Source: Candidatus Micrarchaeia archaeon (GTDB lineage Archaea > Micrarchaeota > Micrarchaeia > Anstonellales > J096). Taken from it: 64,000 nt of DNA. Position numbers and translations under genes: made by a program. The notes below the pieces were generated by a model that worked only from the letters and a program-made list of their open reading frames with translations, was not told where the DNA came from and searched no databases. Positions 16,567-53,487 of the stretch are shown here, piece after piece (position 1 is the first letter of the stretch; each line of letters begins with the position of its first letter). The stretch lies in NCBI GenBank assembly GCA_041500865.1, contig JBGQMY010000002.1, positions 1,982 to 65,981 on the forward strand, given 5' to 3'.

Positions 16567-16690
16567 GTAGGGATGGCGGAGCCCGGTCAAACGTGCCAGA
16601 CTCAAGGCGGAAAAAGACAAGGCGTAAATAAAGACACGTGAGACATCTGGTGCCCTAGCGGCTACGTGGGTTCAAATCCCACTCCCTACA
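16567..16690 (+). tRNA. tRNA-Leu(CAA), class II, with a 38-nt intron at the canonical 37/38 position (16607..16644).
   Basis: Acceptor GTAGGGA/TCCCTAC. Anticodon stem CCAGA/TCTGG is restored after removing the intron. Loop CTCAAG with CAA at 16603-16605. Long variable arm. T-arm GTGGG-TTCAAAT-CCCAC. Discriminator A. TTTTTTAACC box about 22 nt upstream. CCA is not encoded. Confidence 0.75.
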
Positions 16691-22636: not shown

Positions 22637-22790
22637 TCAACCCTTGAATTTGTACTGCCTGCCGCTGCCGCCCCCTTCCCTCAGGAAGAAATAGTATATG
22701 GCGACTATTATGGCTGCTATCGCCACGATGGCCAATAGCGCCGCGGCCAGCACGCCGACCCAGTCAAGCGGCTTTGGCGGCTGCGCCTGT
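22637..22790 (-). other. C-terminal membrane anchor of the giant protein. TM helix plus basic tail, no PGF motif.
   Basis: LDWVGVLAAALLAIVAIAAIIVAIYYFFLREGGGSGRQYKFKG. Confidence 0.65.
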
Positions 22791-28700: not shown

Positions 28701-31700
28701 AATGTTATTGCCGGGTTTATTGTGTCAACAATGAACGTCCTGTTTGTTGAGTTTGTCCTGCCGACTGTGTCGTTGGCCCATGCGGTCATGTTGTACACGC
28801 CGTCCGTGTAGTTAAGCGTTACTGGTCCCGCGTATGTCGTGTTTGCAGTGCCCGTCCCGTTGTAGAACCGCACCGTGTCCAGGTTTGCGTCGCTTGCGCT
28901 TATGTTTATCAGCATGTTGGTCCCGTTTGCGTAATATGCCTGCGAAGGCGACACTATGGATATCGCCGGGTTTGTCGTGTCCACAATCACGTTCCTGACC
29001 CCGGTTGCGTTGGGATTCCCCGCAAGGTCGGAGCAGTTTGCGAAGTAGACGTGGGTGCCGTCGCTGAGGCTGGCCAGCGTGTAGTTGGCCGTCGTGTTTC
29101 CGTCGGAGTTGTGTATCTGCATCGCATATGAGGATGGCAAGGCCGGAATCCTGATGTTGCCGAGGATGTAATTGGCTGACATTCCATAAGTGTTGTCGCC
29201 GTAGCAGGTGGAGTTGCCGTTTGACAACAGATAGCAGGTATGGAAGACGCCTGCTGAAAGCGCAATGGCTTTTCCTCCTGTGTAGTTGGTTGCTTCACCT
29301 GGACCGTTGCCATTGAAGCCGTAGCATGTTGAGTTGCCGTTGCTGAGAAGGTAGCAGGTGTCCAGGTTGCTTGCAGAGACTGCAATGGCGTCGCCACCCG
29401 TGTAGCTGGTTGTTTCGCCATTGCCGCTGTCATAGCCGTAGCATACGGAGTTGCCGCTGCTGAGCACGTAGCATGTGTGGTCCTGGCCTGCAGCAACCGC
29501 GATGGCGTCGCCGCCGGTGTAGTTGGTTGCCTGGCCGGCGCTGCCTACGCATGGCGTGTAACCAAGGCAGTTGGCGTCGCCGTAGCATACGGAGTTGCCG
29601 CTGCTGAGCAGGTAGCAGGTGTCGTAGTCAGTTGCAGAAACTGCGACGGCGTCGCCGCCTGTATAACTGGTCGACTGGTTCGAGCTGTCGTCGCCGTAGC
29701 ATACGGAGTTGCCGTTGCTGAGCACATAGCATGTGTGCTTATATTCCGTTGAGACCGCGATGGCGTTGCCGCCTGTGTAGTTTGTCGACCTGCCGTCGGT
29801 GTTGGAGCCGTAGCATACGGAGTTGCCGTTGCTGAGCACATAGCATGTGTGGTATTCGCCCATGGCAACCGCGATGGCGTTGCCTCCTGTGTAATTTGTT
29901 GCCTCACCGTTGCCATTGAAGCCGTAGCATTTGGAGTTGCCGTTGCTGAGCACATAGCATGTCTGATAAGTGCCTACCGAAATCGGCGCGTTTGAGGACG
30001 CCCTTCTCTGCGCGTCCATTGTGAGCGTGCATGACTGCAGGTTCTCGCTGGAGCTGACGTTTATGGCGATGCTGCCGTTGAGATATGCTGAGGTGTTGGG
30101 CGTCGGGCTCACGAAAGCCAATGCTGGCGCCACGTTGTCTATGCTGATGTTATAGGTGCTGGAGTAGAACCTGCCGTATTCCATCAGCTCCCCGCTTCCG
30201 TCCGCAGCATATGCCACGTCTATTGTAAAGAACGAATACGTGCCGTTGTCTCCGGTCGCATAGACCTTCCAGGTGGCGTTGCACACCTTGCCCTGAGTCA
30301 TGTTGCTGTAGCAGCTGAGGTTGGACGGGTTTGACGAAGTCGTGTAGAACGGCCTTGCCCCAACGGTCGTTGGAACGACGCCCTTGTCAAGCGTTGAGCC
30401 AAGTGCATTGACCCTCGGATATGTGTAGTTGAGCGTTCCTGCGGTGTCAACAATGGGCTTTCCGCCTGTCTTCAGCATCGAATCCACCTCAACCGGAGCC
30501 GGCATCCTGCCGTAGCTCTGGACAAAGAACTGGTTTATGAGCGCGATGGCGCCCGAAACGTGCGGGGTCGCCATTGACGTGCCCTGCTTCGGCGTATGAG
30601 TGCCTGCGAAATCTGTTGCGATTATGCCCACGCCAGGAGCAAGCACGTCAAGCGTCCTGTCCCTGTTGGTAAAGCCCGCTATTGCGTCCGAGTCGTCTGT
30701 TGCGCCCACTGAAATAGCAGTGGAGATGCATGCCGGCGAGCCTATTCCGGGCACGTCAGAAAATGGGTCGGAAGCCCCGGATCCGTGGTGTTCGTTGCCT
30801 GATGCGATGACAACCGAGATGTTGCTATTGCGGGCATTGTATAGATAAGGCGTAAAGGCGTCATCATTGTCGCAAACCTTGCCGTCGCAGCTGCCATAAT
30901 TGCAATCGCTGCCGCCTATGCTTATTGATATGACGCTTATGTTATATAGGCTGGCGTTGTTTATGCACCATTCTATGCCTGCTTCGATATCGGCTTCGGG
31001 GCAGACGTCGCCGGTGCTGTCGCAGACCTTTACCATCGCGATTTTTGCGCCAGGCGCAACGCCCCTGTAAACAGAGTCGATTGAGCCGACAATGCCGGAC
31101 ACGTGCGAGCCGTGGCCGTTGTCGTCAATGAAGTTAGTGTCGTTGTTGTAGAAGTCGTATCCCCCTACAATCTTGCTGCAGTTGTGGCTCGTTATTATGT
31201 CTGCAAGCGTGCAGCTCCCGAAGTCCGGATGCGCGTAGTTTATGCCTGTGTCAAGTATGCACACTGTCTGGCCTGTGCCGTTTATGTTCCGGCCGTTTAT
31301 TGACATGTTCCATAGCTCAGTCGCATTTATGAGCGGAACTGAAACGTCAAGCATGGTATGGAAAGTCCTTGCGATGCGGACAGATGCGACGTTCGGGTTG
31401 GCCATGAGGCTCTTTATGCCCGCAAGCGTCGCAGTCCCCGAGAAGCTGTTCACTGTGGAATACCTGTACTTAACCTTGAAGTCGCCCGAAGAAAGCGTTG
31501 AAATCACGGCAGACTGCACCGAATATACGTTTTCCCTTGTCTTGAGGCTTGCAGCCGGCTCCTTGAGCGTCACGATTACTTCAACCGGGCCGTTCTTTGC
31601 CGCGGAAAGGATGTCCTTGGGCGTCTCGTTTGCGCCCGCCATTATCGGGTCAAGGACCGCGGCAACAGCCCCGCACGGGCCGCCGACGCAGGTCACGGAT

Positions 31701-34700
31701 GCGCTGATGTTGAACGTGGCGTTGTCTTTCATGCTGCTCCTTGTCACGTTGGTTATGTTCGCAACCAATATGCCCTGTTGCTGGACATAGAGATTATACG
31801 TCCCGGCATCACCGTAAAGCTCATCGACCTCAACGTAGTACGTGGCGGTTTCCGGTGCCGTGAACCAGATTTCGCTGTTCCTGTTGATTGCGAATATTAT
31901 GTCATCGCTATATCCCAGTATTGTGCCGGTTGAGTTGTAAAGCTGCATCTGCGTGTCCGTGATTGAGATGGCCGTAAGGTTCTTGGTCCATATGAAATAT
32001 GTATATCCATTTATCGCGTTGAATTTCACGAAGTCTATATCCGTCGGGGTGTTGAACGTGTGCGTCTGCGGCACGCCGGTCGTATTTATCCAATTCGCGC
32101 TGGCGTTGTCGTTGTCCGGCTCGTATGCGTCCGGGCTCAATGGCGCTATGGTGAAGGTTGTCCTTGATGTCGCGTTGTTGCCAGGTTCCGGATATGCGAA
32201 GTCGTATGCAGTCACATTTAACCTGTAGTCGCCCTGGGTGAGCGTCGTTGTGTTGCGCAGGCACCTCAACGTTTCGCCGTTCGGGGCCAATGCGGTGCAG
32301 TTCGCGGTGTTGCTGGTGACGCTCCCGTTTGTCGCATTGTAAACGTATGTCGTTGCGTTTATTGATATCAATATCAGGCTGGGCGCAGTCCCTGTGCCGT
32401 TGACAGTGATGTTCATTATGAAAGACGTTATGTTGGTTGAATAGCCGTCTGCTGGCTTTACGAGGGTTATCACAGGGCTGACGTTCTCCGTGACATTGTA
32501 GCCTGAGAATCCGGAGACGTTGAACGTCAGCGTCCCCGCAACCGCGTAAGTGGCGCCAGAAAGCGAGCAGTTTGTGCCGAGTGTGCGGCATCCTGCATAT
32601 CCGGCAAGGGAGCATATGCCGTTGGAGGATGAATTTATTGAGCATGAGGTTCCGTTGACGTAGCAGTACCCGGTATGCAACTGGCACGTGCCAGTGATTG
32701 GATATGTGGAGCATTTTTGGGTTGTGGCATTGACCGAGCACGTTCCGCCGTTCAGGGTGCTGGAGTTGTAGGTTGTCCAGCTTGCCACATGGACAGAGGA
32801 CTGCTTTGGCGAATCGTCGGCGTATATGCCTGGCTGGGAAACGAACGGCAGGTTGTAGAGCCTCACTGTCGCGTTCGTGTCCAGCTCCACGAAATAGTCC
32901 GTGTCTATGAAAATCCTTGACTGCTCGAACGTGTCGGGCGCCCCTATGTCCACGGTTATCGCAGAGCCAAGGTTGCTGAGCTTGTCCGCGCCAGACCACG
33001 TGGAAATGTTGACGGAGGTGAGGTTTATCAGCGCTGCGCTTGAAAAGTTCGTGCTTGGGCTCAGGCCTCCGCTTGCGCAGGACTCGTTCATCTGTATGTC
33101 TATGATGAAGTTGACCCTGCTGAAGTCAAACACCTTGGTGAAGTTGGTCGTGAGGTTGCCGAAGCGGGTGCACGGGTTGCCAGTCATGTTTGGCACGCCT
33201 ATGTCCTGGAGTATGATTTCAACGGGAGTCATGTTCCATTGGCTGAATTCATCCGTGGCGATTACCCATACCATCCTCTGATTGACGGGGCCGGGCTGTG
33301 CGTACTGGCCTATGCTGCAAGAGCCGTTCCACAGGCCCGTGGCATGGTTGAAAGTCAAATTCAGGATGCCGCCGCAGGCGCTCGCATTGACGTCCGAGAA
33401 GTTAGCGACGACGGATGTGATGTTGCCCTCGCCGGTCGCGTTAACAGAAAGGTTGATTATGGCGTCGTATGGCGAGAAAAAGTTGTCAGGGTTGAGGATT
33501 TGGACGTCCGAGACCGGAAGCTGGCTGCTGAGGTTTGCCAAGACGCCCCATGCCATGGCATGGGCGTTGACATGGTCATCGGCCTCAAAGCCAATCCGGT
33601 ATTCGCCGTCCGGGTCTGCGCGCACAAGCGGGATGTTGGATGACGAATTTACCGGATAGATGGTTATGTTGGAGTTGTTGAACGGGACTTTCTGCGCTGT
33701 GCTCAGGTTGAGGTATATCCTCTGCGGCATGAATTTGGTCTGGTTGTTGGCATTTATGATGCTGGTGGTGCTGAGATTGCAGCCGTCCATGCCGCACCAT
33801 TGCTCGCTCGCTATGCCCAATAAGGTTGCATTCTGGCCGTTGGACATGGACGTATTGTAGATGAGCCACCAGTTGTAGGGCTTTGTGCAGTTGTTATCCT
33901 CCCCGCAGGAGAAAATGAAAGTGCCGTTGCAGTCCCAGGGCGCGGTGTCGTTGATTTTCAGGCAGCCTGGCACTGATGCAGTGGGGCTGTCGTTGCCAAG
34001 CGCGAGAAAGTAAAAATTGTAATAGGCCGAGACGTTCTCGCCATTGAGCGTGTAGGTCTCCTGGCTCCATGTCGTGTTGTAGGCGCCGCTGGCTGGAAAG
34101 TCCCAGTTGGTCCCCTGTGTCTCGTTGCCGGACTGGCCCCACCCGGTCACTACATAACTGTAGTTGTCCAGCACGAAGGGCGTGACGCTCCACAGATACT
34201 TGTCGGTGATGTTCGCCCTCAGGAACCACGTCCTATGATAATAGAGGGAATAATTAAGGTCCATCTTGGAAACCGAAGGCGGGCTGTTGTCCACCGTGAT
34301 GTTGGGAAGCATGTCATAGCCGTATCCGCCTGGTGAAGACGCATTGAGCACTAGCGAGTAGTTTTCGCACTCGCCGGCACAATTTAACGACGTGTCCCAT
34401 GAGCAGATAGGGGAAGGGTCCGTTTCATTGCTTACGGACGCTGTGCCGTTGCATATCGTTGCGTTGTAAGCGCCGTTCCTGTAGAGCGACAGCGCCCAGC
34501 TGGTCATGTTGGGGTCGTACGCTATTCCCTCGACATCCACAACGCCGCCCACGAACTGCATTATCACGCCGCTTATGTTGTCATAGTTCCCTGTTGGGTT
34601 GGTTATTTTGACATCTGGGTTGCCGCCGTTTTCGGATATGTAGACCGGAACTGTCGCGCTGACCGTGACATTGGCGACCGAACTGCCGTAAGATGCGTTT

Positions 34701-35827
34701 GATGATGCATTGAATAAATACTCATTATAGGCCACGACCTGTCCGATGCCGTTGCCGTATATCGCCTGGTAAGTCGTCATCCACGGAGTCAGGCCGCTGG
34801 CATCGGTTGTCGCGTTCCATGCCTGCGCCCCAAGGCCGTTTGTGGCTGTGACGTTCGCGGCATTTACAGGAGCCGTTCCGTTGGAGACGTTTGCGCGGAC
34901 ATACCAGCCGATTGTGAAGTTGCTGGCCGCAACAGAGCCAAGTTGGCCAAGGCTAAGGCCGCTGATGTTGATGAACGAGTTGTTGCTTGAGGACGTGTTT
35001 GAATAAACTTGCCATGTCGTTACGTTGGCGAGGGAAACGTTGGCAATAATGTTGCTTGTCGCATAAGTAAGATGGAAGGCATGCGTAACGTTTGATATTG
35101 AGCCTCCTGTCACGGCATTGCTGCTGTCCACGGAAAATTGGATGCCGTACGTAACTTTTGATATGTAGTTGCCGCTGACTGTGTTGCTATTTGAGTTGGT
35201 GTCAAGCGCTATGCCAATCGGCGACGTGTTATTGATGATGTTGTTGGCTATTAGGTTGCTCGAGGCGCCTGGAATGTAAATGCCGAGCGTTGTGCCTGAG
35301 ATGTTGTTGTTCGTTATGTTGTTGCTTGTTGAGCTGCCGCTGGAGACGTATATTCTTATGCCGTAGCCGTAATTGTATGGGTCGTTGACTGTGGTGTTCG
35401 CGATTGTGTTGCCGGTTATGGTGTTGTTGGCATTGGTGCCTGAAACATATATGTTGATGCCGCTCTGGCTCCTGGTTATGGTGTTGTTCTGGATGGTGCT
35501 GTTGGCCACGCCGCCTGACGTGCGGATGCCGTCGCTGAAGTTCCAGATGTTGCAGTTCTTTATTGTGACGTTGTTCTTGTCAGGGATATAGACGCCATAC
35601 CTTCCGTTATCGGGGGTGACGCCGATTATGGAATATCCGCCGCAGTCAATCACGATGTTGCTTGCATTCACATATACGCAAGCGGTGCCGGTTGAGGCAT
35701 TGGCGACCATGTCGCTTGACATCGTCAGGCTGGCATTGAGGCTTTCTGAGCAGTTCGTTGCGAAGGCCAGAGACGCAAAAACGAAAATCCACGCAATAGC
35801 GTAGCGTATGCTTAGATTACATTGCAT
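22637..35827 (-). CDS. Giant cell-surface protein of about 4,396 aa. It has a signal peptide, parallel beta-helix, subtilisin-like S8 peptidase, RCC1-like propeller, about 25 Ig-like repeats, a Gly14 linker and a C-terminal TM anchor.
   Basis: Single uninterrupted ORF. Strongly Asn/Thr/Ser-rich with hundreds of N-x-S/T sequons. The ATG at 35827 is preferred over the track start at 35860 because the TATA box overlaps 35851-35857 and the paralog starts with the same MQ.NL motif. Confidence 0.85.
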   Translation of the reverse strand: MQCNLSIRYAIAWIFVFASLAFATNCSESLNASLTMSSDMVANASTGTACVYVNASNIVIDCGGYSIIGVTPDNGRYGVYIPDKNNVTIKNCNIWNFSDGIRTSGGVANSTIQNNTITRSQSGINIYVSGTNANNTITGNTIANTTVNDPYNYGYGIRIYVSSGSSTSNNITNNNISGTTLGIYIPGASSNLIANNIINNTSPIGIALDTNSNSNTVSGNYISKVTYGIQFSVDSSNAVTGGSISNVTHAFHLTYATSNIIANVSLANVTTWQVYSNTSSSNNSFINISGLSLGQLGSVAASNFTIGWYVRANVSNGTAPVNAANVTATNGLGAQAWNATTDASGLTPWMTTYQAIYGNGIGQVVAYNEYLFNASSNASYGSSVANVTVSATVPVYISENGGNPDVKITNPTGNYDNISGVIMQFVGGVVDVEGIAYDPNMTSWALSLYRNGAYNATICNGTASVSNETDPSPICSWDTSLNCAGECENYSLVLNASSPGGYGYDMLPNITVDNSPPSVSKMDLNYSLYYHRTWFLRANITDKYLWSVTPFVLDNYSYVVTGWGQSGNETQGTNWDFPASGAYNTTWSQETYTLNGENVSAYYNFYFLALGNDSPTASVPGCLKINDTAPWDCNGTFIFSCGEDNNCTKPYNWWLIYNTSMSNGQNATLLGIASEQWCGMDGCNLSTTSIINANNQTKFMPQRIYLNLSTAQKVPFNNSNITIYPVNSSSNIPLVRADPDGEYRIGFEADDHVNAHAMAWGVLANLSSQLPVSDVQILNPDNFFSPYDAIINLSVNATGEGNITSVVANFSDVNASACGGILNLTFNHATGLWNGSCSIGQYAQPGPVNQRMVWVIATDEFSQWNMTPVEIILQDIGVPNMTGNPCTRFGNLTTNFTKVFDFSRVNFIIDIQMNESCASGGLSPSTNFSSAALINLTSVNISTWSGADKLSNLGSAITVDIGAPDTFEQSRIFIDTDYFVELDTNATVRLYNLPFVSQPGIYADDSPKQSSVHVASWTTYNSSTLNGGTCSVNATTQKCSTYPITGTCQLHTGYCYVNGTSCSINSSSNGICSLAGYAGCRTLGTNCSLSGATYAVAGTLTFNVSGFSGYNVTENVSPVITLVKPADGYSTNITSFIMNITVNGTGTAPSLILISINATTYVYNATNGSVTSNTANCTALAPNGETLRCLRNTTTLTQGDYRLNVTAYDFAYPEPGNNATSRTTFTIAPLSPDAYEPDNDNASANWINTTGVPQTHTFNTPTDIDFVKFNAINGYTYFIWTKNLTAISITDTQMQLYNSTGTILGYSDDIIFAINRNSEIWFTAPETATYYVEVDELYGDAGTYNLYVQQQGILVANITNVTRSSMKDNATFNISASVTCVGGPCGAVAAVLDPIMAGANETPKDILSAAKNGPVEVIVTLKEPAASLKTRENVYSVQSAVISTLSSGDFKVKYRYSTVNSFSGTATLAGIKSLMANPNVASVRIARTFHTMLDVSVPLINATELWNMSINGRNINGTGQTVCILDTGINYAHPDFGSCTLADIITSHNCSKIVGGYDFYNNDTNFIDDNGHGSHVSGIVGSIDSVYRGVAPGAKIAMVKVCDSTGDVCPEADIEAGIEWCINNASLYNISVISISIGGSDCNYGSCDGKVCDNDDAFTPYLYNARNSNISVVIASGNEHHGSGASDPFSDVPGIGSPACISTAISVGATDDSDAIAGFTNRDRTLDVLAPGVGIIATDFAGTHTPKQGTSMATPHVSGAIALINQFFVQSYGRMPAPVEVDSMLKTGGKPIVDTAGTLNYTYPRVNALGSTLDKGVVPTTVGARPFYTTSSNPSNLSCYSNMTQGKVCNATWKVYATGDNGTYSFFTIDVAYAADGSGELMEYGRFYSSTYNISIDNVAPALAFVSPTPNTSAYLNGSIAINVSSSENLQSCTLTMDAQRRASSNAPISVGTYQTCYVLSNGNSKCYGFNGNGEATNYTGGNAIAVAMGEYHTCYVLSNGNSVCYGSNTDGRSTNYTGGNAIAVSTEYKHTCYVLSNGNSVCYGDDSSNQSTSYTGGDAVAVSATDYDTCYLLSSGNSVCYGDANCLGYTPCVGSAGQATNYTGGDAIAVAAGQDHTCYVLSSGNSVCYGYDSGNGETTSYTGGDAIAVSASNLDTCYLLSNGNSTCYGFNGNGPGEATNYTGGKAIALSAGVFHTCYLLSNGNSTCYGDNTYGMSANYILGNIRIPALPSSYAMQIHNSDGNTTANYTLASLSDGTHVYFANCSDLAGNPNATGVRNVIVDTTNPAISIVSPSQAYYANGTNMLINISASDANLDTVRFYNGTGTANTTYAGPVTLNYTDGVYNMTAWANDTVGRTNSTNRTFIVDTINPAITFTTPTPNSSAYSLNAYVAINISSSDTNFANATIRLYNATGGLRNSTFSSSPGSVFVNYTNLSDGLYYFNATVYDLAGLANKTETRNITIDATAPSITIISPTSKLYNNASILVNISVTDSDNSTWFFNGTANETYAVGTPVTRTFQQGANTLTVWSNDLIGHLSTASVNFSVDSIPPNITLNAPAAGGFSNTINVTLSFTPDDNVDTSITCKIYINGTLNATAAVSNASQYNLTRNFSNALRTWYVNCTDDANNSAVSETRNFTVDTIKPTIIFKSPTENSSAYLNRDSALVNVTASDANFRNVTIFFYNSTGLYFNTSGTLTNLFANETSLAEGIYYINATAFDSAGNLNKTETRNFTVDTVNPAIAFVAPTTNVSFSLNNYVLANVSVNDSNFANVTVRLYNSTGGLRNSTFSSSSATVFANYSNLSDGVYYFNATAYDRAGRINKTETRNVTLNTVAPTLAIISPTARYYTNATIWVNISATDADLNTTWFYNGTDNETYNGTPVTRTFQQGANTLTAWANDMVGHVSTASVNFTVDSVPPNITLNAPAAGSFSPTTNVTLSFTPDDNVDTSITCKIYINGTLNATVAVSNASQYNLTRNFSNALRTWYVNCTDDANNTVVSETRNFTVDTINPAIAIMSPSLAYYTNATILVNISATDANKDTVWFYNGTDNETYNGTPFARNFSDATYGMYAWVNDSAGRINSTNRTFTVDTINPEISFVAPTTNVTASLNNFIEINVSANDTNLANVTIRVYNSTGALVRNQTSTASPAFLNVTGLGDGTYFFNATVYDRAGRTNKTETRNVTLDAIAPSITIISPAATAYSNSTVLVSINVTDADLNTTWFYNGTANETYMVPVNRTFTEGANTLTVWSTDMVGHVSTASVNFTVDTTNPAIRFATPSTNSSSFANSIIANVSVNDSSFANVTVRLYNASGALRNQTWSNSSSFLANFSGLAEGTYYFNATAYDMVGRSNSTETRNVTVDRTVPQIWFASPTTNSSTGTPIPNIDVNLIMNDTNTMNGIITLYTPAGLYDTFNGSASGILVLAHTFNNLSDGVYYLNASVSDLAGNFNKTETRIIVIDTTAPGITLVAPENNSFPASSLVSLSFTAVDAISENMTCVVYVDGSAAGSVNAHNNTPASLSYNATETSHLWNVSCSDAANNIAVSGTDNFTVDTVSPTITIVSPLLSYYYNTSTILINISANDTNLDTVWFYTNGTNVIYTPPGAPFTLDFDDGIYNMTAWANDSAGTTVSSGRTFTVDTTAPIVAIQSPDNITIYTTANIDLNYTASDANLAYCRYMVDGGAAIGLAGCSNISSLLGISDGNHTITVIANDSAGNTANDTVFFAMNLTPESNAPNYTALEPSANINDTYRPNLSYLLNATWTDETGLDTVLVENNFSGSLVQSPFTSQAGSQFEYDTGHLAAGEYTYRWTANDTWSNLNDSMPNMSITVLMADPSAALAASPSWSGTWPYGTIVNCTGAAQVNMELYRNGTLVDSGMGFASDPQNLSAGTYEYVCNTSGNENYTNGSASNTLTIAQVSTALTFSSSAGWTPTWNNSNINVSCSGQAGLNVSIYRNGTFMASGLGYAESIANLPAGAYLFVCNISGTENYTGASASNNLTIAKAAPSISLTVNGVAGGITVNTGATVTFNGTVTTPANGHIEIWLDSAFSRSGNGNIYNSTSWSATGTHTVKLVYNATENYSSSSLSRTVTVKTSGGGGGGGGGGGGGGAALPSMAISNYTSCNSDGTANVRVTVASSGTALSGVTVYINSDDRHTAYTSGYTFSNLASGTYVVYADKDGYDSASLTVSFSCAAAGGQQNQTAGNGTQGGMSRNQTSQIPYVSNGSTRYINVTLIDVGAEYAAYQVDSLTGTITVYVGENRTVDVNGDGSLNVSIMLNNVSGNNAFAVIGAMARAAAQQGGNATHPTNVTQNVSGANITCAADNGACKIDSDCCSGSCNMSAGLCAQAQPPKPLDWVGVLAAALLAIVAIAAIIVAIYYFFLREGGGSGRQYKFKG
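23487..23530 (-). repeat. Low-complexity tract encoding Gly14 (CCGCCTCC-type repeats).
   Basis: Direct reading. A slippage-prone homopolymeric codon run in the linker before the last three Ig-like domains. Confidence 0.8.
23560..29100 (-). repeat. Intragenic tandem array of about 25 Ig-like (CARDB/PKD-like) roughly 100-aa domains. Several units are near-identical at the DNA level (approximate).
   Basis: Recurrent motifs NFTVDT(I/V)NPAI and TETRN(V/I)T(L/V)D. Segment 26.9-27.2 kb nearly duplicates 28.07-28.3 kb. Confidence 0.7.
29150..29980 (-). other. RCC1-like beta-propeller repeats in the giant protein (approximate).
   Basis: About 7 tandem units with period about 50 aa: HTCYVLSNGNSVCYG..N..G..T.YTGG.AIAV. 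The nucleotide-level repeats are visible. Confidence 0.6.
30500..31320 (-). other. Subtilisin-like (S8) serine peptidase domain of the giant protein (approximate).
   Basis: Catalytic Asp in VCILDTGIN (about 31258), His in DDNGHGSHVSGIV (about 31105), Ser in GTSMATPHVSGAIALI (about 30572). The D-H-S order is correct. Confidence 0.8.
35000..35760 (-). other. Right-handed parallel beta-helix (PbH1/NosD-like) repeat region of the giant protein (approximate).
   Basis: Repeats of the NNTITGNTIANTT / NNITNNNISGTTLGIYI type. Confidence 0.55.
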
Positions 35828-35848
35828 GGATGGGCTTTGGCTGCGCGC

Positions 35849-35873
35849 CTTTTTAAACATTAATGACGTTGGG
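35849..35873 (-). promoter_or_regulatory. Promoter of the giant gene. The TTTAAAAAG TATA element (minus sense) is 24-30 nt upstream of the ATG at 35827. The block is conserved with 37342-37363.
   Basis: Plus-strand CTTTTTAAACATTAATGACGTTG is 22/23 identical to the block upstream of the 458-aa gene. Confidence 0.6.
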
Positions 35874-41603: not shown

Positions 41604-42827
41604 TCAGTATTTCAGTATCGCTCCTATCCCGCCGAAGCCGTTCAGGAACTGCTGGCCTTCGGAGGTGTTCACGCTTATGACCTCGACGCGGATGCCCGCC
41701 TTCCTGCAAATCTCTATGATGTATTCTGCTATTGGCGCAACATCGATTTGGTTCATCAATGAGCCGCATTTTGGGCATGTTATGGTCTTTTCAGAAAGGT
41801 CTTTCTCAAAAGTTCTTGATTCTTCGGTATCGCAGGACGGGCACTTGTAATGAACGACTGAGAACGGCGCCTCTTCCGAAACAAGGACAAGCGATGCCCT
41901 TTTCGTGGCTATGGCGTCCAGCGTCTGGGAAAGGCCGTAGACCGCCTTCTCCGACTTTATTATGGTCTTCATGAATTCGTCAAAGAACTTTTTCTCCTTC
42001 ACGGCCTCCTGGCCCGCTATCAGGTCGCCTGCCTTTGCCAAAACCTCCCTTGCCCCGTGCTCGTCAACATAGCCGGTGTCAACAACGCCAAGCACTTTCA
42101 GCTGGTAATTGAACGTGTTCTGCTTCAAAAAATACTCCTTTATCGGCCCTGGCCCTCCAACAATCACGCCTTTCACTTTGCCGAGAAAAAGGGAATCCAT
42201 TGCTTCCCCGACTTTCTTGTGGTAATATTCCTTGCCTTCCTCAATAAGACGGGAATATCTGTTGGCGGATTGGCCCCCGCCCTTAATCTTTGAATGGCCC
42301 AGATTGTGAATCTTGTCAACAACGCGCAATTCAGTTCCCTGCAATATCGCAAGCGTTGCGTCGCTGCCGTCAAGCACGACGATGCCGTATGCGTCCCTGT
42401 TGTTTATCATCTTCTCGAGCGGCTCAAGCCAGAAGATGGAGTCGCATCGGTACATGTTGGTCTCAAGCCTGTTTATGGGCTCGAAGTAGAACGTCTTCAT
42501 ATCCGTTCGTGAAGGGTCGTCCGAAAGGTTGCCGGAAAATATCACAAGGCCGTTTTTTGGCGTCTTGCGGAATCCTTTCAGCACATTGACAATCCGCTCA
42601 AGCGCGTCCTGCACGTTGTTGCGCGTCTGCTTGCTCTTTATGTTGCCTGCCTGGTTGATTTCCTCCCTTATCCTGCCAGAAACCTCGTTTATTGGATAGT
42701 CGGCTGAAACGTAGACTGAAACAAGCTGGGTTCCGGCGCCCCGGTATGCCTTGAGCTTCCTTAGCGTCTTTCGGAACTCATAAAGCTGGTCTGAGGCTAT
42801 CTCCGGCTCCGGCATGGAATCACTCAA
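41604..42827 (-). CDS. prf1: Peptide chain release factor aRF1 (eRF1 family).
   Basis: NIKS motif (GNIKSKQTR), GGQ motif (KIKGGGQSANRY), C-terminal FGGIGAILKY. A CxxC..CxxC insert lies in the C-domain. Confidence 0.9.
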   Translation of the reverse strand: MSDSMPEPEIASDQLYEFRKTLRKLKAYRGAGTQLVSVYVSADYPINEVSGRIREEINQAGNIKSKQTRNNVQDALERIVNVLKGFRKTPKNGLVIFSGNLSDDPSRTDMKTFYFEPINRLETNMYRCDSIFWLEPLEKMINNRDAYGIVVLDGSDATLAILQGTELRVVDKIHNLGHSKIKGGGQSANRYSRLIEEGKEYYHKKVGEAMDSLFLGKVKGVIVGGPGPIKEYFLKQNTFNYQLKVLGVVDTGYVDEHGAREVLAKAGDLIAGQEAVKEKKFFDEFMKTIIKSEKAVYGLSQTLDAIATKRASLVLVSEEAPFSVVHYKCPSCDTEESRTFEKDLSEKTITCPKCGSLMNQIDVAPIAEYIIEICRKAGIRVEVISVNTSEGQQFLNGFGGIGAILKY

Positions 42828-42831
42828 AAAA

Positions 42832-43389
42832 TCAAAGCGTCGTCTTAAGCATCCGCCTTATCTCCTTTATGGCCTTCTCTATCTTGTCAAGCGACTTCGC
42901 GCCTGCTATGATGATTTTGCCGTTCTTGAAAGCCAAAAGCGAAACGCCGAGCTCCCTTATCTTGATTATGGCGCCGGGGAACTGCTCAGGCTCGTACTCT
43001 ATGTCAGGCAGCATCATGGCAACCTTGAACAGGTCCAGGTCCATGTGCAGGTCCGCGCTGGCGACGATATTCGTCAAGTCGTATTTCGGGTCCTCAAGGT
43101 CGTAATTTTTCCTTTTTTCGGCATACGGCTTGAGCAGGCCGTAAACCTTCCTTATGGCCTTTGCTATGAGCTCCCTTGTCCTGCACCCGACCACGACGAT
43201 TTTGCCGTTCTTGAAAATCAGGATTGTGGCTTTAGGCTCGTTGAACTTGAGTATTGCGCCGGGAAACTGCTCAGGCTCGTACTCTATGTTCTTGAAGTTT
43301 GTCGTTAATTCGTAAAGGTCAAGCGTTAGCCCAAGGTCTGTTGACGCGACCAGGTTGGTGACAGTATAAATTTCCTTCTGCTCTGCCAT
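42832..43389 (-). CDS. tbp: TATA-box-binding protein.
   Basis: Two direct repeats (TNLVASTDLGLTLDL.. / TNIVASADLHMDLDL.., each followed by ..YEPEQFPGAI..). The ATG at 43389 (MAEQKEIY) is preferred over the track start at 43464. TTTTAAAT box about 30 nt upstream. Confidence 0.9.
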   Translation of the reverse strand: MAEQKEIYTVTNLVASTDLGLTLDLYELTTNFKNIEYEPEQFPGAILKFNEPKATILIFKNGKIVVVGCRTRELIAKAIRKVYGLLKPYAEKRKNYDLEDPKYDLTNIVASADLHMDLDLFKVAMMLPDIEYEPEQFPGAIIKIRELGVSLLAFKNGKIIIAGAKSLDKIEKAIKEIRRMLKTTL

Positions 43390-43399
43390 TATTATCACC

Positions 43400-44900
43400 A
43401 TTCTTTTAATGGTTTTTATATCATTTAAAAGGGCAAGGTTTATAAAGTGACATCCTCCCAGCACTCTCTAAAGTGCTTGGGTTCCAGCCTCTATTTCAAG
43501 GCGTTTAGTTCCTGCTTCAGCGAAATGTCTTGCAGTTTCATTGCAGAAACCACAGAGGGCATATCTCCACAGGCGTGACTTTCCGCCAGTCCGGCGGTAG
43601 CTCGCTTGAGTATGTTCATTGCCGCGTTCACGTCCCTGTCCTCTGAATATCCGCAATTGAGGCATTTATATGTCCTTACCCCCAATGGCATCTCCTGGAC
43701 GTGCCCGCACTTATTGCATTCCCTTGACGTATTCTCTGGATTCACCTCTATTAGCTCGCAACCAGCGCTTCGAGCCTTGTATGCGAGCATTCCCCTGTAC
43801 GTGCTCCAGCCTGCGTCCGATATCGACTTCGCAAGGCAATGGTTCTTCACCATGTTCTTGACCTTTAGTTTTTCGACCGCTATCTTTCCGTATGAGTTGA
43901 CCTGCTTCCTTGAAAGCTTGTGAAGAAAGTCAAACTTCTGGTTGACGATTCTCTCTTCCAATCTCGCTTTTCTCCGTCTTGCTCTTCTTCTGTTCCTGCT
44001 GTTTGGCTTTTTTCTTGAGACCCTGCGGCTAAGCAGTTTGAGCCTTTTCTCTGATTTCCTTAAGAACTTAGGAGGATTTATCTTTTCGCCATTTGAAAGG
44101 GTTGCGAAACTTGTCAAACCAACGTCTATGCCTATCGCTTCCTTGTTATTGCTTTCAAACGCCTTTTCAGGCACTTCGTTTGAGAATCCGACATACCACT
44201 TTCTTGATGGATACTGTTTTATGACGCATGTTTTTATCGTGCCTTTCGGCGGTCTGTGCATAACGATTGGTATGTTTCCTATGTTTGAGAGATGAAGCCT
44301 TTTGCTGTTTTTGAACTTGAATCCTGACTGGGGATATGTTAGAGAACATGCATGCTTCTTTATCCTTGGAAATCCGACCTTTATCCTTTTTCCTGCTTTC
44401 TTCCCTTTAACGCGCCTGAAGAACGCCTTGTACGAGTCTCCCAACCTCTTTGATACATTCTGTGCTACTTGGGAATAAAGTTCCTGGAATTGCGGCTGCT
44501 CCCTCTTTAACTGTATGATATGCTTGTTCATATCAATCTCCGAAAGCGTTTTCCCTGTTTCCTTGTAATACGACTTTGACTTTTCAAAAAGTAGGTTATA
44601 CAGTTCCTTTGCCAGCTGCATCTGCCTGTTTAAGCGGAAAACCTGTTTCCCAGACGGATATATTCTATACTTATATCCTAGCATGCTTGCATCTTTCTGG
44701 CCTCGTTTATAAACGTGGGCAGACCTTATTGCCAGAACCCTATTTGTGCACTTTTCATCCCGCTTTTGGAAGGCATAGACATTCTTAGTGTACCGAAAAA
44801 CCGAGTTTTGTTGTGACAATGACGATAAGTCAATTCATTCCCGGGTTAAAACCCAGGAATTTCTTGTCCAGCATGTTTAAAAATATTTCTCTCTAACTTC
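43400..44900 (-). mobile_element. Solo IS200/IS605-family (IS1341/ISC-type) element carrying only tnpB. The ends are approximate.
   Basis: tnpB ORF with no tnpA (Y1 transposase) nearby. Hairpins at both flanks (43457-43481 and 44833-44861). Inserted between tbp and rpl21e. Confidence 0.5.
43491..44684 (-). CDS. tnpB: TnpB (OrfB) RNA-guided nuclease/transposase accessory protein of the IS200/IS605 family.
   Basis: N-terminal YKYRIYPSGKQ, RuvC-like core, C-terminal zinc finger CNKCGHVQEMPLGVRTYKCLNCGYSEDRDVNAAMNI. The track start at 44819 is a TTG. The first ATG (MLGYKYRIYP) is at 44684. Confidence 0.85.
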   Translation of the reverse strand: MLGYKYRIYPSGKQVFRLNRQMQLAKELYNLLFEKSKSYYKETGKTLSEIDMNKHIIQLKREQPQFQELYSQVAQNVSKRLGDSYKAFFRRVKGKKAGKRIKVGFPRIKKHACSLTYPQSGFKFKNSKRLHLSNIGNIPIVMHRPPKGTIKTCVIKQYPSRKWYVGFSNEVPEKAFESNNKEAIGIDVGLTSFATLSNGEKINPPKFLRKSEKRLKLLSRRVSRKKPNSRNRRRARRRKARLEERIVNQKFDFLHKLSRKQVNSYGKIAVEKLKVKNMVKNHCLAKSISDAGWSTYRGMLAYKARSAGCELIEVNPENTSRECNKCGHVQEMPLGVRTYKCLNCGYSEDRDVNAAMNILKRATAGLAESHACGDMPSVVSAMKLQDISLKQELNALK

Positions 44901-44938
44901 TCTCTAAAAGGAATACATACAATACAGGTGTTCAGCAT

Positions 44939-45217
44939 ATGGCAAAACGAAGCAGGGGTACGCTAAGCAGCCACACGAGGAATCTCTCAAAAAAGAAGAC
45001 ACTGACAGTGAACGACTACATCAAGGGATTTGCCGTCGGAGACAGGGTGACGATAGACCAGCACGCGATGTTCAGCGGCGCGATGCCCCACATGAGGTAC
45101 AAGGGCAAGGCAGGCACCGTGCTTGAGGTAAGGGGCAAGAGCTACGTGGTTGAGATAGCCGATGGCGGGATAAGGAAGAAGATAATATCCAGCCCGGTTC
45201 ATATAAGGAAGGTGTGA
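44939..45217 (+). CDS. rpl21e: Large-subunit ribosomal protein L21e.
   Basis: MAKRSRGTLSSHTRNLSKK... with GDRVTIDQH and KGKAGTV, a typical L21e. Confidence 0.85.
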   Translation: MAKRSRGTLSSHTRNLSKKKTLTVNDYIKGFAVGDRVTIDQHAMFSGAMPHMRYKGKAGTVLEVRGKSYVVEIADGGIRKKIISSPVHIRKV

Positions 45218-46081: not shown

Positions 46082-46112
46082 TTTTTAAACACTTATTCAC
46101 ACAGTAAGCGCA
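46053..46112 (+). repeat. Copy 1 of a roughly 60-bp direct repeat (3' end of the DUF655 gene plus the TTTTTAAACA promoter plus the ankyrin ATG).
   Basis: GTGACGCAGCCGCCGAAGGAAGCAATCTGATTTTTAAACACTTATTCACACAGTAAGCGCATGG. Confidence 0.8.
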
Positions 46113-46732
46113 TGGTCCAAAAAGAAATGCCAGAAAAGGGGAAACTGGTTTTAGGCGCAAGTAAAAAGCCCGCCGCGAAGGCAGGAAAACCGGCTTACAA
46201 AGCGGATATCCTGCCAAGCGGAAAAATGGCGTTATCCAAGAAAGAGCAGAAACGGTTCGATGACAATCTCCGGAATGCCGTCATATATGAAAACGTTTTT
46301 GGTGTATTGCGGTTCATCAAGTCAGGCGCAGACATGAATGCAGGGGACGACTGTGGCCTGACGGCGCTCATGCTCGCCGCATCCAAAGGAAACGCCCAAA
46401 TCTGCAAACTGCTGGTTAAGAAGGGCGCGGATGTTGACGTGAGGGACAACACAAACCGGACGGCGCTCATGGTTGCCGCACAGCGGAAGCATGCCGACAT
46501 CTGCAGGCTGCTGGTTGAAAATGGCGCTGAGGTGCTGGCAAGGGACTGGCATGAAAGAACTGTGCTGCATTATGCTGCAGCAGGAAGGCTAAGCGGCATA
46601 TGCACGCTGCTGATCAAGAAAGGCGCGGACGTGAATGCAACGGACAGGGATAAGAGGACCGCGCTCGATATCGCCCTAGAATCCGGCCACACGGAAATCG
46701 CCGACCTTCTGCAAAAGAAGATGAAAAAGTGA
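46112..46732 (+). CDS. Ankyrin-repeat protein with Lys-rich leader and no C-terminal FREC tail.
   Basis: ANK repeats. TTTTTAAACA box 28 nt upstream. Confidence 0.8.
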   Translation: MVQKEMPEKGKLVLGASKKPAAKAGKPAYKADILPSGKMALSKKEQKRFDDNLRNAVIYENVFGVLRFIKSGADMNAGDDCGLTALMLAASKGNAQICKLLVKKGADVDVRDNTNRTALMVAAQRKHADICRLLVENGAEVLARDWHERTVLHYAAAGRLSGICTLLIKKGADVNATDRDKRTALDIALESGHTEIADLLQKKMKK

Positions 46733-46872: not shown

Positions 46873-47290
46873 GGCTCAGGAAACAAGGACGGCAAAAAAG
46901 AAACTGCTTTCATGCGCAAAGAAACCGGCGCATGAATTAGCGACAGAAGGGGCAAGGAAGACGCTCAGCGCGGATATGCAGGCACGGATAGAAAAATTGC
47001 TTGTTGGGCTGGTCGCACAGGGAGATAAGGACGAGCTGACTAATCAGATAGCAAGGCTGGAAAAGGCAGGCGTTGACGTAAAGCAGATAATAAACGCAAG
47101 CGACACGGACGGCAGGACTGCGCTGATGCATGCCGCAGCAGAGGGCCGTACCGAAACATGCAAACTGCTCATAAGCAAAGGCGCCGACATAAACAAAGGG
47201 GACAGTTTTGGCTGGACCGCGTCCATGGTTGCCGGACATTACGGGCGTAAGGAAACTGAGGCATACCTCAAGTCCGTTGAATCCAAGTAA
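46871..47290 (+). CDS. Short ankyrin-repeat protein (tandem paralog).
   Basis: ANK repeats DGRTALMHAAAEGRTETCKLLISKGADIN. Confidence 0.8.
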   Translation: MAQETRTAKKKLLSCAKKPAHELATEGARKTLSADMQARIEKLLVGLVAQGDKDELTNQIARLEKAGVDVKQIINASDTDGRTALMHAAAEGRTETCKLLISKGADINKGDSFGWTASMVAGHYGRKETEAYLKSVESK

Positions 47291-47349
47291 AGATGGCCTG
47301 GCAGCCGGGCCCACTCAGCTTTTTAATCCATTAAGCCCAATTGCTTTCA

Positions 47350-52071: not shown

Positions 52072-52824
52072 ATGGCGCAAAGGCTCAGAGAGTCTAAGAT
52101 TAAAAAAGCAGCCAAACGGCCAGACCTGGCCAGCAAAAAGCTGCCGACTGAGGAAAGGAAGCCCAGCCAAAAGGAGCAGAATCGGCTTGATGCCAATCTC
52201 TTGATAGCGGCCGCGAATGGCTTGCTAGATGATGCCAGGAGGATGCTGAAGGCTGGGGCGAATATAGAGGCAAGGGACAAGAACGGATGGACCGCGCTTA
52301 TGTATGCTGCACAGCATGGGCACACCAAAACCTGCAAGCTGCTGCTTGAAAAGGGCGCAGGAATCAAAGTGCAGGAGCGGCTTGATGCCCGCCTCCTGAA
52401 AGCGGCAGGGGAAGGCAGGACAGGAAAAGTCGGAAGGCTTCTGAAGAAAGGCGCAAGCATCGAGGCGGGGGACAGCATCGGCTGGACCCCGCTCATGATG
52501 GCCGCGTATGGGAACAACATGGAAACCTGCGCGCTGCTGGTTGAAAAGGGCGCGGACGTCAACGCAAAAAGCAGGGAAAGCTGGAATGCGCTCATGCTGG
52601 CCGCGTGTTGGGGATATACGGAAATCTGCGCCTTCCTGCTGGAAAAGGGCGCAGACGTGAATGCAAGCGACTATGATGGCAAAACCCCGCTAATAGTTGC
52701 AAGGGAAAACGGAAAAACAGAAACAGCCGAACTCCTGAAGATTTATTCGATGGCAAAGATAATGGACAGGGAAACGGCGGTTACGTTCATTTCCAGCTTC
52801 CGCGAGTGCATAGGTGGTGCCTGA
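52072..52824 (+). CDS. Ankyrin-repeat protein with Lys-rich leader MAQRLRESKIKK.. and tail ..FISSFRECIGGA.
   Basis: 5-6 ANK repeats. GGAGG lies 3 nt before the ATG. Confidence 0.85.
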   Translation: MAQRLRESKIKKAAKRPDLASKKLPTEERKPSQKEQNRLDANLLIAAANGLLDDARRMLKAGANIEARDKNGWTALMYAAQHGHTKTCKLLLEKGAGIKVQERLDARLLKAAGEGRTGKVGRLLKKGASIEAGDSIGWTPLMMAAYGNNMETCALLVEKGADVNAKSRESWNALMLAACWGYTEICAFLLEKGADVNASDYDGKTPLIVARENGKTETAELLKIYSMAKIMDRETAVTFISSFRECIGGA

Positions 52825-53487
52825 ATGGCGCAAAAGCTCAGGGAGCCAAAAATCATCCATAAGATAAGGGAATTCTTCCATAAGCCTGAGCCTGACAATT
52901 CGGCAACGCTGCAGGAGCGGCTCAATGCCGACCTTTTGAAGGCTGCCGCAGGAGGCCAGACAAAGGAGGTTGAAACGCTGCTGGAAAAAGGCGCAGAATG
53001 GTGGGCGACGAGCGAAAGCGGCTTTACCGCGCTGATGTTTGCAGCAGGCAGGGGCCACGCAAGGGTCTGCGGGCTCCTGGTTGAACATGGCGCAAGCATT
53101 GACTCAAGGGCATTGAACGGCTCAACCCCGCTGATGCTTGCAGCAGGGAACGGGAAGTCGGAAACCTGCGCCTTGCTCATTGAAAAAGGCGCTGCCGTGA
53201 ACGCAGTCAACGAGGACAGCAGCAACGGCTGGACAGCGCTGCATTGGGCGGCAATCAACGGGCACACCAAGGCATGCGCAGTCCTGGTTGCAAAAGGGGC
53301 CAAGATAATGGGGGAAAATGGCTTGCATGAGATTCCTGAACTTTTGGCTGAGAGGCAGGACAAAAGGGAGACGGCCGCGTTCCTCAGGCCCATCAGGGAG
53401 ATGTGGTACTCGGCCGGCAACCTGGACGGCGCAAACGGCTTTGCCATATCCATATCGTTTTTCGGCAAATGCATCAAGGCGGCATAA
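52825..53487 (+). CDS. Ankyrin-repeat protein with tail variant ..FFGKCIKAA. The ATG overlaps the upstream stop (TGAATG), so the two are likely cotranscribed.
   Basis: ANK repeats. MAQKLREPKI leader. Confidence 0.8.
   Translation: MAQKLREPKIIHKIREFFHKPEPDNSATLQERLNADLLKAAAGGQTKEVETLLEKGAEWWATSESGFTALMFAAGRGHARVCGLLVEHGASIDSRALNGSTPLMLAAGNGKSETCALLIEKGAAVNAVNEDSSNGWTALHWAAINGHTKACAVLVAKGAKIMGENGLHEIPELLAERQDKRETAAFLRPIREMWYSAGNLDGANGFAISISFFGKCIKAA

Follow-up and report, generated by a model that had tools for sequence, protein, structure and literature searches.

A probable tnpB-only IS200/IS605-family element inserted between the divergent rpl21e and tbp genes of a Micrarchaeota-like archaeon

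In this study we analysed a 64-kb stretch of DNA (64,000 nucleotides, nt; hereafter the window, whose positions are used throughout) from a Micrarchaeota-like archaeal genome recovered from a metagenome. We are highly confident that positions 43447–44876 on its minus strand represent a tnpB-only (IS1341-type) insertion sequence (IS) of the IS200/IS605 family. The inserted element is 1430 nt long, is made up of a composite left end, the tnpB gene and a right end with an omega-RNA scaffold, and lies between tbp, the gene for the TATA-binding protein (TBP), and rpl21e; its removal in silico recreates the empty rpl21e-tbp sites found in related genomes. The insertion, its exact ends, the conservation of the RNA and left-end structures and the intact catalytic residues are firmly established. 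As such the element is a clear but ordinary representative of a well-known transposon family.

Evidence for the insertion comes from sister lineages in which the element is missing. TBP homologues 98% (L167), 95% (L168), 87% (L169–171) and 86% (L176) identical to that of the window were traced to their contigs, and in all four lineages rpl21e and tbp are divergent neighbours, separated by 93–100 nt, with no tnpB between them. The wider gene order of the sisters is that of the window, with DUF655, ankyrin genes, SMC and PolB on one side and aRF1 on the other. When positions 43447–44876 were deleted in silico, the window aligned end to end, from rpl21e through tbp, with the empty sites of L167, L168 and L169; the L176 site is likewise empty. 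The sister junction reads TTA(A/G) followed directly by TTTATAAA, and no bases are duplicated: TTAA precedes TTTATAAACC in the excised window and in L167, and TTAG precedes TTTATAAA(T/C) in L168, L169 and L176. The ends of the element, which has neither terminal inverted repeats nor a target-site duplication, are defined by this alignment. The only other difference between the excised window and the empty sites in the junction region on the rpl21e side is an 11-nt tandem duplication, TTAGAGAGAAG / TTAGAGAGAAA (44886–44907, minus strand), which is missing from all empty sites and appears as a 12-column gap in L167, L168 and L169. An original prediction, made from the letters of the window, had placed a solo tnpB insertion between tbp and rpl21e and had suggested comparing this junction in relatives; the empty sites bear it out.

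Three contigs from other samples carry an identical filled locus, with 0 mismatches. As the locus is filled in these samples and empty in the sisters, the insertion is established in this population and missing from its sister lineages. Judging from the sister that lacks the element at 98% TBP identity, the insertion is young. An alternative, that the ‘empty’ lineages once carried the element and shed it through imprecise deletion, is unlikely because the junctions are scarless. Outside this locus, the element of a TnpB that is 80% identical to ours (L082) has the same right end among different neighbours, namely an IS4-like transposase fragment and a gene read by eye as DUF359-like; hence the element family has moved. 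As a separate observation, two window-identical contigs from independent samples (L173 and L174) both break at one point inside tnpB (~44323–44324), which hints at a repeat or a population polymorphism there.

The tnpB gene (43491–44684, minus strand; ATG at 44684, stop codon TAG at 43493–43491) encodes 397 amino acids (aa) with Pfam matches to OrfB_IS605 (PF01385, 1.3e-26), Cas12f1-like_TNB (PF07282, 5.9e-24) and HTH_OrfB_IS605 (PF12323). The protein is identical to one (P0001) in NCBI assembly GCA_041480205.1, contig JBGOZM010000002.1. The RuvC residues D187/E271/D351 and the zinc-finger cysteines C323/C326/C341/C344 (CxxC...CxxC) are all present and form invariant columns in an alignment of 30 relatives (A1), the catalytic residues being assigned by inspection of the motifs GIDVG, VEKL and DRDVNAA. 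Structures of ISDra2 TnpB match residues 5–367 (E 2.7e-51). Taken together, this TnpB may be regarded as a candidate compact nuclease with a predicted TTTAA target/transposon-adjacent motif (TAM) and a defined scaffold. Among the matches listed in protein-alignment scans of genomes and metagenomes, relatives had <=51% identity; the closest ones (63–80%) were retrieved individually by exact protein look-up. Where a source name is given, relatives of TBP and of TnpB are mostly Micrarchaeota. One relative, with a TnpB 66% identical (L083; JGI Ga0315282_10012214), lies on a 13-kb contig with many short open reading frames (ORFs), none with a Pfam match; the contig resembles viral or plasmid DNA from a DPANN archaeon.

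At the right end, positions 43447–43603 (minus strand) are predicted to form an ISDra2-type omega-RNA scaffold of 157 nt, 113 of which lie inside the tnpB ORF with the stop codon counted. It contains four stem-loops (SL1–SL4): SL1 (43598–43583) with the loop GGACU, SL2 at about 43554–43531, SL3 (43502–43487), which spans the tnpB stop codon and holds it (43491–43493) in its loop, and SL4 (43481–43457; CCCAAGCACTTTAGAGAGTGCTGGG), the terminal stem-loop with a UUUA loop. SL4 is the first of two hairpins noted in the original prediction, which had rightly suggested that it may belong to the omega-RNA and right end. It is followed by an invariant 10-nt tail, AGGAUGUCAC (43456–43447), with which the element ends. 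The right end reads GGAAGCC-hairpin-GGAGGATGTCA(C) in 21 fetched loci (two duplicates), and in the window, L082, L083, L084 and 16 further independent relatives tnpB is followed by (C/T)TGGAAGCC-hairpin-GGGAGGATGTCAC. Homology between the elements stops at the final C of the ...GUCAC tail, which is position 43447 of the window and lies exactly 10 nt past the hairpin.

For the covariance-model search that had been suggested, a model (R1) was built from 16 relatives with the window excluded. Its automatic consensus differs from the hand-checked stems, and it was used for detection only. In the 64 kb it gave a single match, of full length, at 43447–43603 on the minus strand (104.8 bits, E about 1e-26), and it also matched 59 other relatives, in each case on the coding strand at the 3' end of tnpB. 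An alignment of 17 sequences contains three covarying helices plus one variable helix, with compensatory changes in 17/21 pairs; 92.9% of the scaffold cells are paired, compared with 34–47% when the partners are slid by 1–3 columns, and 0/500 shuffles reach the observed values. A pseudoknot joins GAC in the SL1 loop (43591–43589) to GUC at positions -5 to -3 of the tail (43451–43449). It covaries between GAC/GUC and GAA/UUC, the third pair being C-G in 25 and A-U in 28 of 60 sequences, counts that lean towards the structure in that the alignment was fitted to the model. Folded alone, the window RNA does little better than shuffles (z = -1.9), and the case for the scaffold structure is one of covariation, not of folding energy. 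Its expression and its binding by TnpB are predicted only.

Could the hairpin after the tnpB stop instead be a plain transcription terminator that insulates tbp from tnpB? The stem-loop does stand 9 nt past the stop codon, with a T-rich stretch some way downstream. However, the stem runs into the invariant AGGATGTCAC and not into a run of T. The distance between hairpin and stop codon moreover varies among relatives, from overlap with the ORF (L092) to 81 nt from the stop to the element end (L084), whereas that to the element end is fixed, and the hairpin covaries within a larger structured RNA with a pseudoknot. Archaeal transcription termination also relies on oligo-T rather than on hairpins. 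This explanation is contradicted by the data, and we consider it very unlikely.

The left end is composite. Its outer module of 64 nt (44813–44876, minus strand) aligns without gaps to the left-end consensus of the family (alignment A6) and includes the hairpin TCCTGGG-TTTTAA-CCCGGGA (44858–44839) followed by ATGAATTGAC; the two together (44858–44829) fit the left-end module of the relatives, again without gaps. A second hairpin upstream of tnpB had been noticed in the original prediction and left unassigned; it is this left-end hairpin, found at 44837–44860 and not, as then given, at 44833–44861. Its sole imperfection is a G.T wobble on the minus strand that would be an A.C mismatch on the plus strand. 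Subterminal hairpins thus stand at both ends of the element on the same strand, with G.T wobbles on the tnpB-sense strand only. In the relatives, the module is composed of an outer stem, AGAA(A/T)A, the hairpin CCCAC..TTTAG..GTGGG, ATGAA and the second strand of the outer stem. The module covaries, both in its hairpin and in its outer stem (77.9% paired compared with 33–45% when slid; 12/13 pairs compensatory). The outer module ends in ...TTGTCAC, which resembles a right end, and no other copy of the 64 nt was found in any fetched locus.

On the inner side of the outer module, and next to it, lies a degenerate left end (44733–44812, minus strand) with the motif GCGGGATGAAAAGTGCAC at 44763–44746, a homologue of the left ends found in L083, L084 and L002. 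Its hairpin arms are no longer complementary, it carries a 15-nt insertion relative to the relatives, and TCAC stands where these have the target motif. On the simplest reading, a second element, either small or internally deleted, may have gone into the same target motif, which would be regenerated 5' of every inserted copy. The stretch GGGATGAAAAG (44763–44746) had at first been taken as the left end and was rejected, since the empty-site alignment puts the end ~110 nt further out. The outer hairpin is preferred because this alignment extends the element and because the family consensus fits it better.

On its 5' side the left end is abutted by the presumed target motif TTTAA (44877–44881, minus strand), and in the empty sites TTAA or TTAG stands before TTTATAAA. 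In the window, 18 nt separate the junction TTAA from the foot of the left-end hairpin. A TTA[A/C/T] motif occurs 17–19 nt 5' of the hairpin foot in 11/12 relatives picked for a recognisable left end, compared with 16/96 control windows (17%), in a test that was blind to the chosen cut points.

Several observations weigh against our identification of the element. Three of the four sister lineages have TTAG and not TTAA at the junction, and TTAG would only be a candidate TAM. Rfam, searched in gathering and E-value modes, contained no relevant family and gave only chance matches (E>3); the omega-RNA assignment therefore depends on our own model and on the architecture of the element. A literature search with the tail sequence returned unrelated primer matches only. 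The composite left end with its degenerate inner hairpin means that part of the element is decaying. As had been noted in the original prediction, tnpA is missing: tblastn with three Y1 TnpA proteins of distant relatives found no match in the 64-kb window, and no tnpA adjoins any close relative whose flanks were checked, so that this copy may be immobile. Finally, a single copy is on record for this TnpB protein, and a repeat search of the window found no second copy of the element. In more distant relatives (38–42% identity; L011, L014, L015, L030, L045, L064, L152 and others) tnpA lies directly upstream of tnpB. These are Ktedonobacteria, Anaerolineae, Firmicutes and Hadesarchaea, whereas DPANN-type loci with the GGAGGATGTCAC tail have no tnpA. 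A missing tnpA in cis is the defining trait of the tnpB-only subgroup.

Hence it might be possible that the element is an immobile relic, a single insertion with no TnpA available, in which tnpB and the omega-RNA are kept by drift or homing-type retention and the hairpins are leftovers. Most of the evidence is compatible with this. The absence of tnpA from the 64 kb and from the surroundings of every close relative would fit a relic, as would the single copy, the degenerate inner left end, and a relative (L084) that also has a weak left-end hairpin and sits in the same gene context in all 11 contigs on record. However, the ORF is intact with all catalytic residues present, the right end and the outer left-end hairpin are likewise undamaged and agree with the family consensus, and the insertion is young, since the sister at 98% TBP identity lacks the element. 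The search for tnpA moreover covered only the 64-kb window and the flanks of close relatives. We regard the relic as possible, yet not as the likelier account of a locus that we read as a tnpB-only IS200/IS605-family element.

The element lies in the divergent promoter region of rpl21e and tbp. On the minus strand the order of genes is aRF1 (41604–42827), tbp (42832–43389) and tnpB (43491–44684), with tbp downstream of and co-directional with tnpB; rpl21e (44939–45217, plus strand; Pfam Ribosomal_L21e) is divergent from both. The tbp product (Pfam TBP, two repeats) starts with MAEQ from an ATG at 43389, and its Shine-Dalgarno sequence GGTGAT (43399–43394) is kept in all empty sites. Between the tnpB stop and this ATG we measured 101 nt, in agreement with the roughly 100 nt predicted. 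The further suggestion that the right end and scaffold overlap the tbp promoter did not hold. The element ends at 43447, and TTTATAAA and TTTTAAAT belong to the older flank, which is preserved at the empty sites. From the right end to the tbp ATG, all 57 nt are of ancestral origin, with one substitution relative to L167 besides two extra bases and a substitution at the AAAAGAAT indel. Given this ancestral flank and the end of the element at 43447, the scaffold abuts TTTATAAA without overlapping the tbp promoter. Both TATA-like boxes that had been proposed are present, the palindromic TTTATAAA at 43439–43446 as described and TTTTAAAT (43430–43423, minus strand) at 34–41 nt from the ATG instead of about 30 nt.

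Within the 64 kb TTTATAAA occurs only twice, in the right-end flank (43439–43446) and inside the IS (44706–44713, minus strand), and the following base is C at both sites, giving TTTATAAAC. By its position 21 nt upstream of the tnpB ATG, the box inside the IS is a putative promoter for a leaderless tnpB mRNA; relatives have a TATA-like box 21–24 nt upstream of their tnpB start codons. The original prediction had proposed that the insertion may have reshaped the tbp promoter; what it replaced is only the sequence directly upstream of TTTATAAA, at the position of the B recognition element (BRE). In the empty sites 37–39 nt lie between TTTATAAA and the Shine-Dalgarno sequence on either side, one belonging to rpl21e and the other to tbp. 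These distances raise the idea, in our view an improbable one, that the insertion split one shared palindromic TATA box and so rewired two essential genes. If so, tbp would keep TTTATAAA, with the IS tail GATGTCAC at the BRE position, and may receive read-through from the IS promoter, given that tnpB and tbp are co-directional. The rpl21e gene would have been cut off from TTTATAAA and would now rely on the TTAAAAATA box at the left-end junction. This box is 41 nt from the rpl21e Shine-Dalgarno sequence, a spacing that is set or lengthened by the 11-nt duplication. Whatever is said here of the function of these promoters we infer from their sequence and spacing.

The element integrated without target duplication 3' of TTTAA in the ~95-nt divergent promoter region of rpl21e and tbp, directly upstream of TTTATAAA. 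A likely mode of action can be proposed by analogy, from which we infer its transcription, the processing of its RNA, cleavage, the use of a TAM and its present mobility. In this account tnpB would be transcribed from its own left-end TATA-like box, and the 3' part of the transcript would fold into the ISDra2-type scaffold with four stem-loops, pseudoknot and the tail AGGAUGUCAC. Transcription would continue ~16–20 nt into the flank and yield the guide UUUAUAAACCUUGCCC..., by analogy with tested TnpB systems (PMC8612924, PMC10278001). The predicted guide segment UUUAUAAACCUUGCCCUUUU (43427–43446, minus strand) includes the ancestral TTTATAAA box; L167 differs from it at 1/20 and L176 at 2/20 positions. 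This flank is present in the empty sites, and only the guide part of the omega-RNA would come from box-containing sequence. With its intact RuvC domain, the complex of TnpB and omega-RNA would cut TTTAA+TTTATAAACCTTGCCC targets, that is, an empty site or an excision product, after which recombination with a filled copy would bring the element back, following the homing logic of TnpB (PMC10055086). Such action of the ribonucleoprotein (processing and guided cutting of the empty allele) is expected from related systems. The filled locus would be spared, as GTCAC and not a TAM precedes its guide match. No off-target of the guide with <=3 mismatches was found in the window. Transposition itself would need a Y1 TnpA in trans. 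The conserved left and right hairpins, at about 18 nt and 10 nt from their respective ends, have the same placement as those of IS608.

The position of the guide match might also point to a different role, namely a domesticated TldR-like TnpB whose guide binds and regulates the adjacent tbp promoter. The predicted guide does correspond to the tbp-proximal TATA-like region, tnpB lies directly upstream of tbp on the same strand, and domesticated TnpB transcription factors are known (PMC10705468). However, what distinguishes a TldR is a dead RuvC domain, lost transposon ends and a conserved association with the host gene. Here both the RuvC triad (D/E/D) and the zinc finger are preserved, the element still has its left and right ends together with a target motif, and relatives at 86–98% TBP identity have no such gene beside tbp. 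The guide match at the filled locus is moreover preceded by GTCAC and not by a TAM, and the Sulfolobus homologue is inactive on such a site (PMC11043419). The data contradict a TldR-like regulator, which we hold to be scarcely credible. Nor is tnpB an ancient domesticated gene. The original prediction had allowed for this should relatives carry tnpB at the same site and an omega-RNA-like structure be lacking; the structure is present and the close relatives have no tnpB here, and the gene is therefore read as part of a transposable element.

Some features of the surrounding sequence are recorded here in their own right. In the sister lineage at 87% TBP identity, the aRF1 beside tbp has 913 aa and contains an intein with a LAGLIDADG homing endonuclease domain (L169 5586–8327, L170 2729–5470, L171 1241–3982); the aRF1 of the window (407 aa, 41604–42827) has no intein. 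Positions 22637–35860 (minus strand) form one ORF of 4407 aa with many internal direct repeats (periods of ~114–120 nt and ~530–1100 nt) and no Pfam match on record in the portion covered by L001. Ankyrin-repeat genes are unusually numerous for an archaeon (64–528, 1579–2517, 46112–46732, 47100–47300, 52072–53487 and others) and are visible as dispersed DNA repeat families with a 99-nt period. At 16567–16690 (plus strand) an Rfam tRNA match over 124 nt (44 bits), absent from the ARAGORN output, is probably an intron-containing archaeal tRNA.

These findings leave the current understanding of TnpB unchanged, and the only unusual points are the position of the element in the promoter region of two core genes and its composite left end. 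Nevertheless, the locus provides a clean natural case, with exact ends, empty sisters that still carry the TAM and the guide match, a covarying omega-RNA and an IS608-like left end, and it extends this type of element to Micrarchaeota-like DPANN archaea. As tbp and rpl21e, in whose core promoter region the element lies, are both expected to be essential, it might serve as a case for the tolerance of archaeal promoters to insertions.

Among known systems, ISDra2 TnpB of Deinococcus radiodurans (PDB 8EXA, 8BF8, 8H1J) resembles the window element, which is known from its sequence, in protein alignment and in an RNA that overlaps the 3' end of tnpB and the right end. In the ISDra2 omega-RNA the last of four stems bears a UUUA loop, and -5U to -3C form a pseudoknot with -103A to -105G (PMC10097598); all four stems, the loop and the pairing of -5 to -3 with a 5' loop recur here. 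The two differ in that the window element has no tnpA, a predicted TTTAA-like TAM instead of TTGAT, a scaffold of 157 nt in our model compared with 116 nt, and an archaeal host with TATA-type promoter elements. A second system is TnpB7 of Sulfolobus islandicus REY15A (IS605 type), which is archaeal, uses the TAM TTTAA/NTTAA, begins its guide right after UUCAC and leaves its native TTCAC-flanked site uncut (PMC11043419). The window element shares with it the predicted TTTAA-like TAM, the guide after a ...UCAC tail and a native right-end junction that would be no target. Its tail is GUCAC in place of UUCAC (many of its relatives have GUUCAC), and its host is a DPANN-type archaeon. In the same Sulfolobus genome, tnpB-only elements are a recognised group, IS1341 (PMC11043419). 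TldR proteins, nuclease-dead domesticated forms, have in common with our TnpB the protein family and a guide aimed at promoter-proximal sequence beside a host gene; the window element, with its intact nuclease residues, its transposon ends and close relatives without the gene, is not a TldR. Lastly, IS608 of Helicobacter pylori, the reference for end geometry in the IS200/IS605 family, likewise has an imperfect subterminal hairpin at either end, both on one strand, and a 4–5-nt target motif, and it lacks inverted repeats and target duplication. Its right end lies 10 nt 3' of the hairpin foot, and its left cleavage site ~18–19 nt 5' of the foot and next to the target motif. It encodes TnpA, with TTAC as its motif, whereas the window element has no TnpA, and its left end includes an additional outer stem as well as a degenerate second copy.

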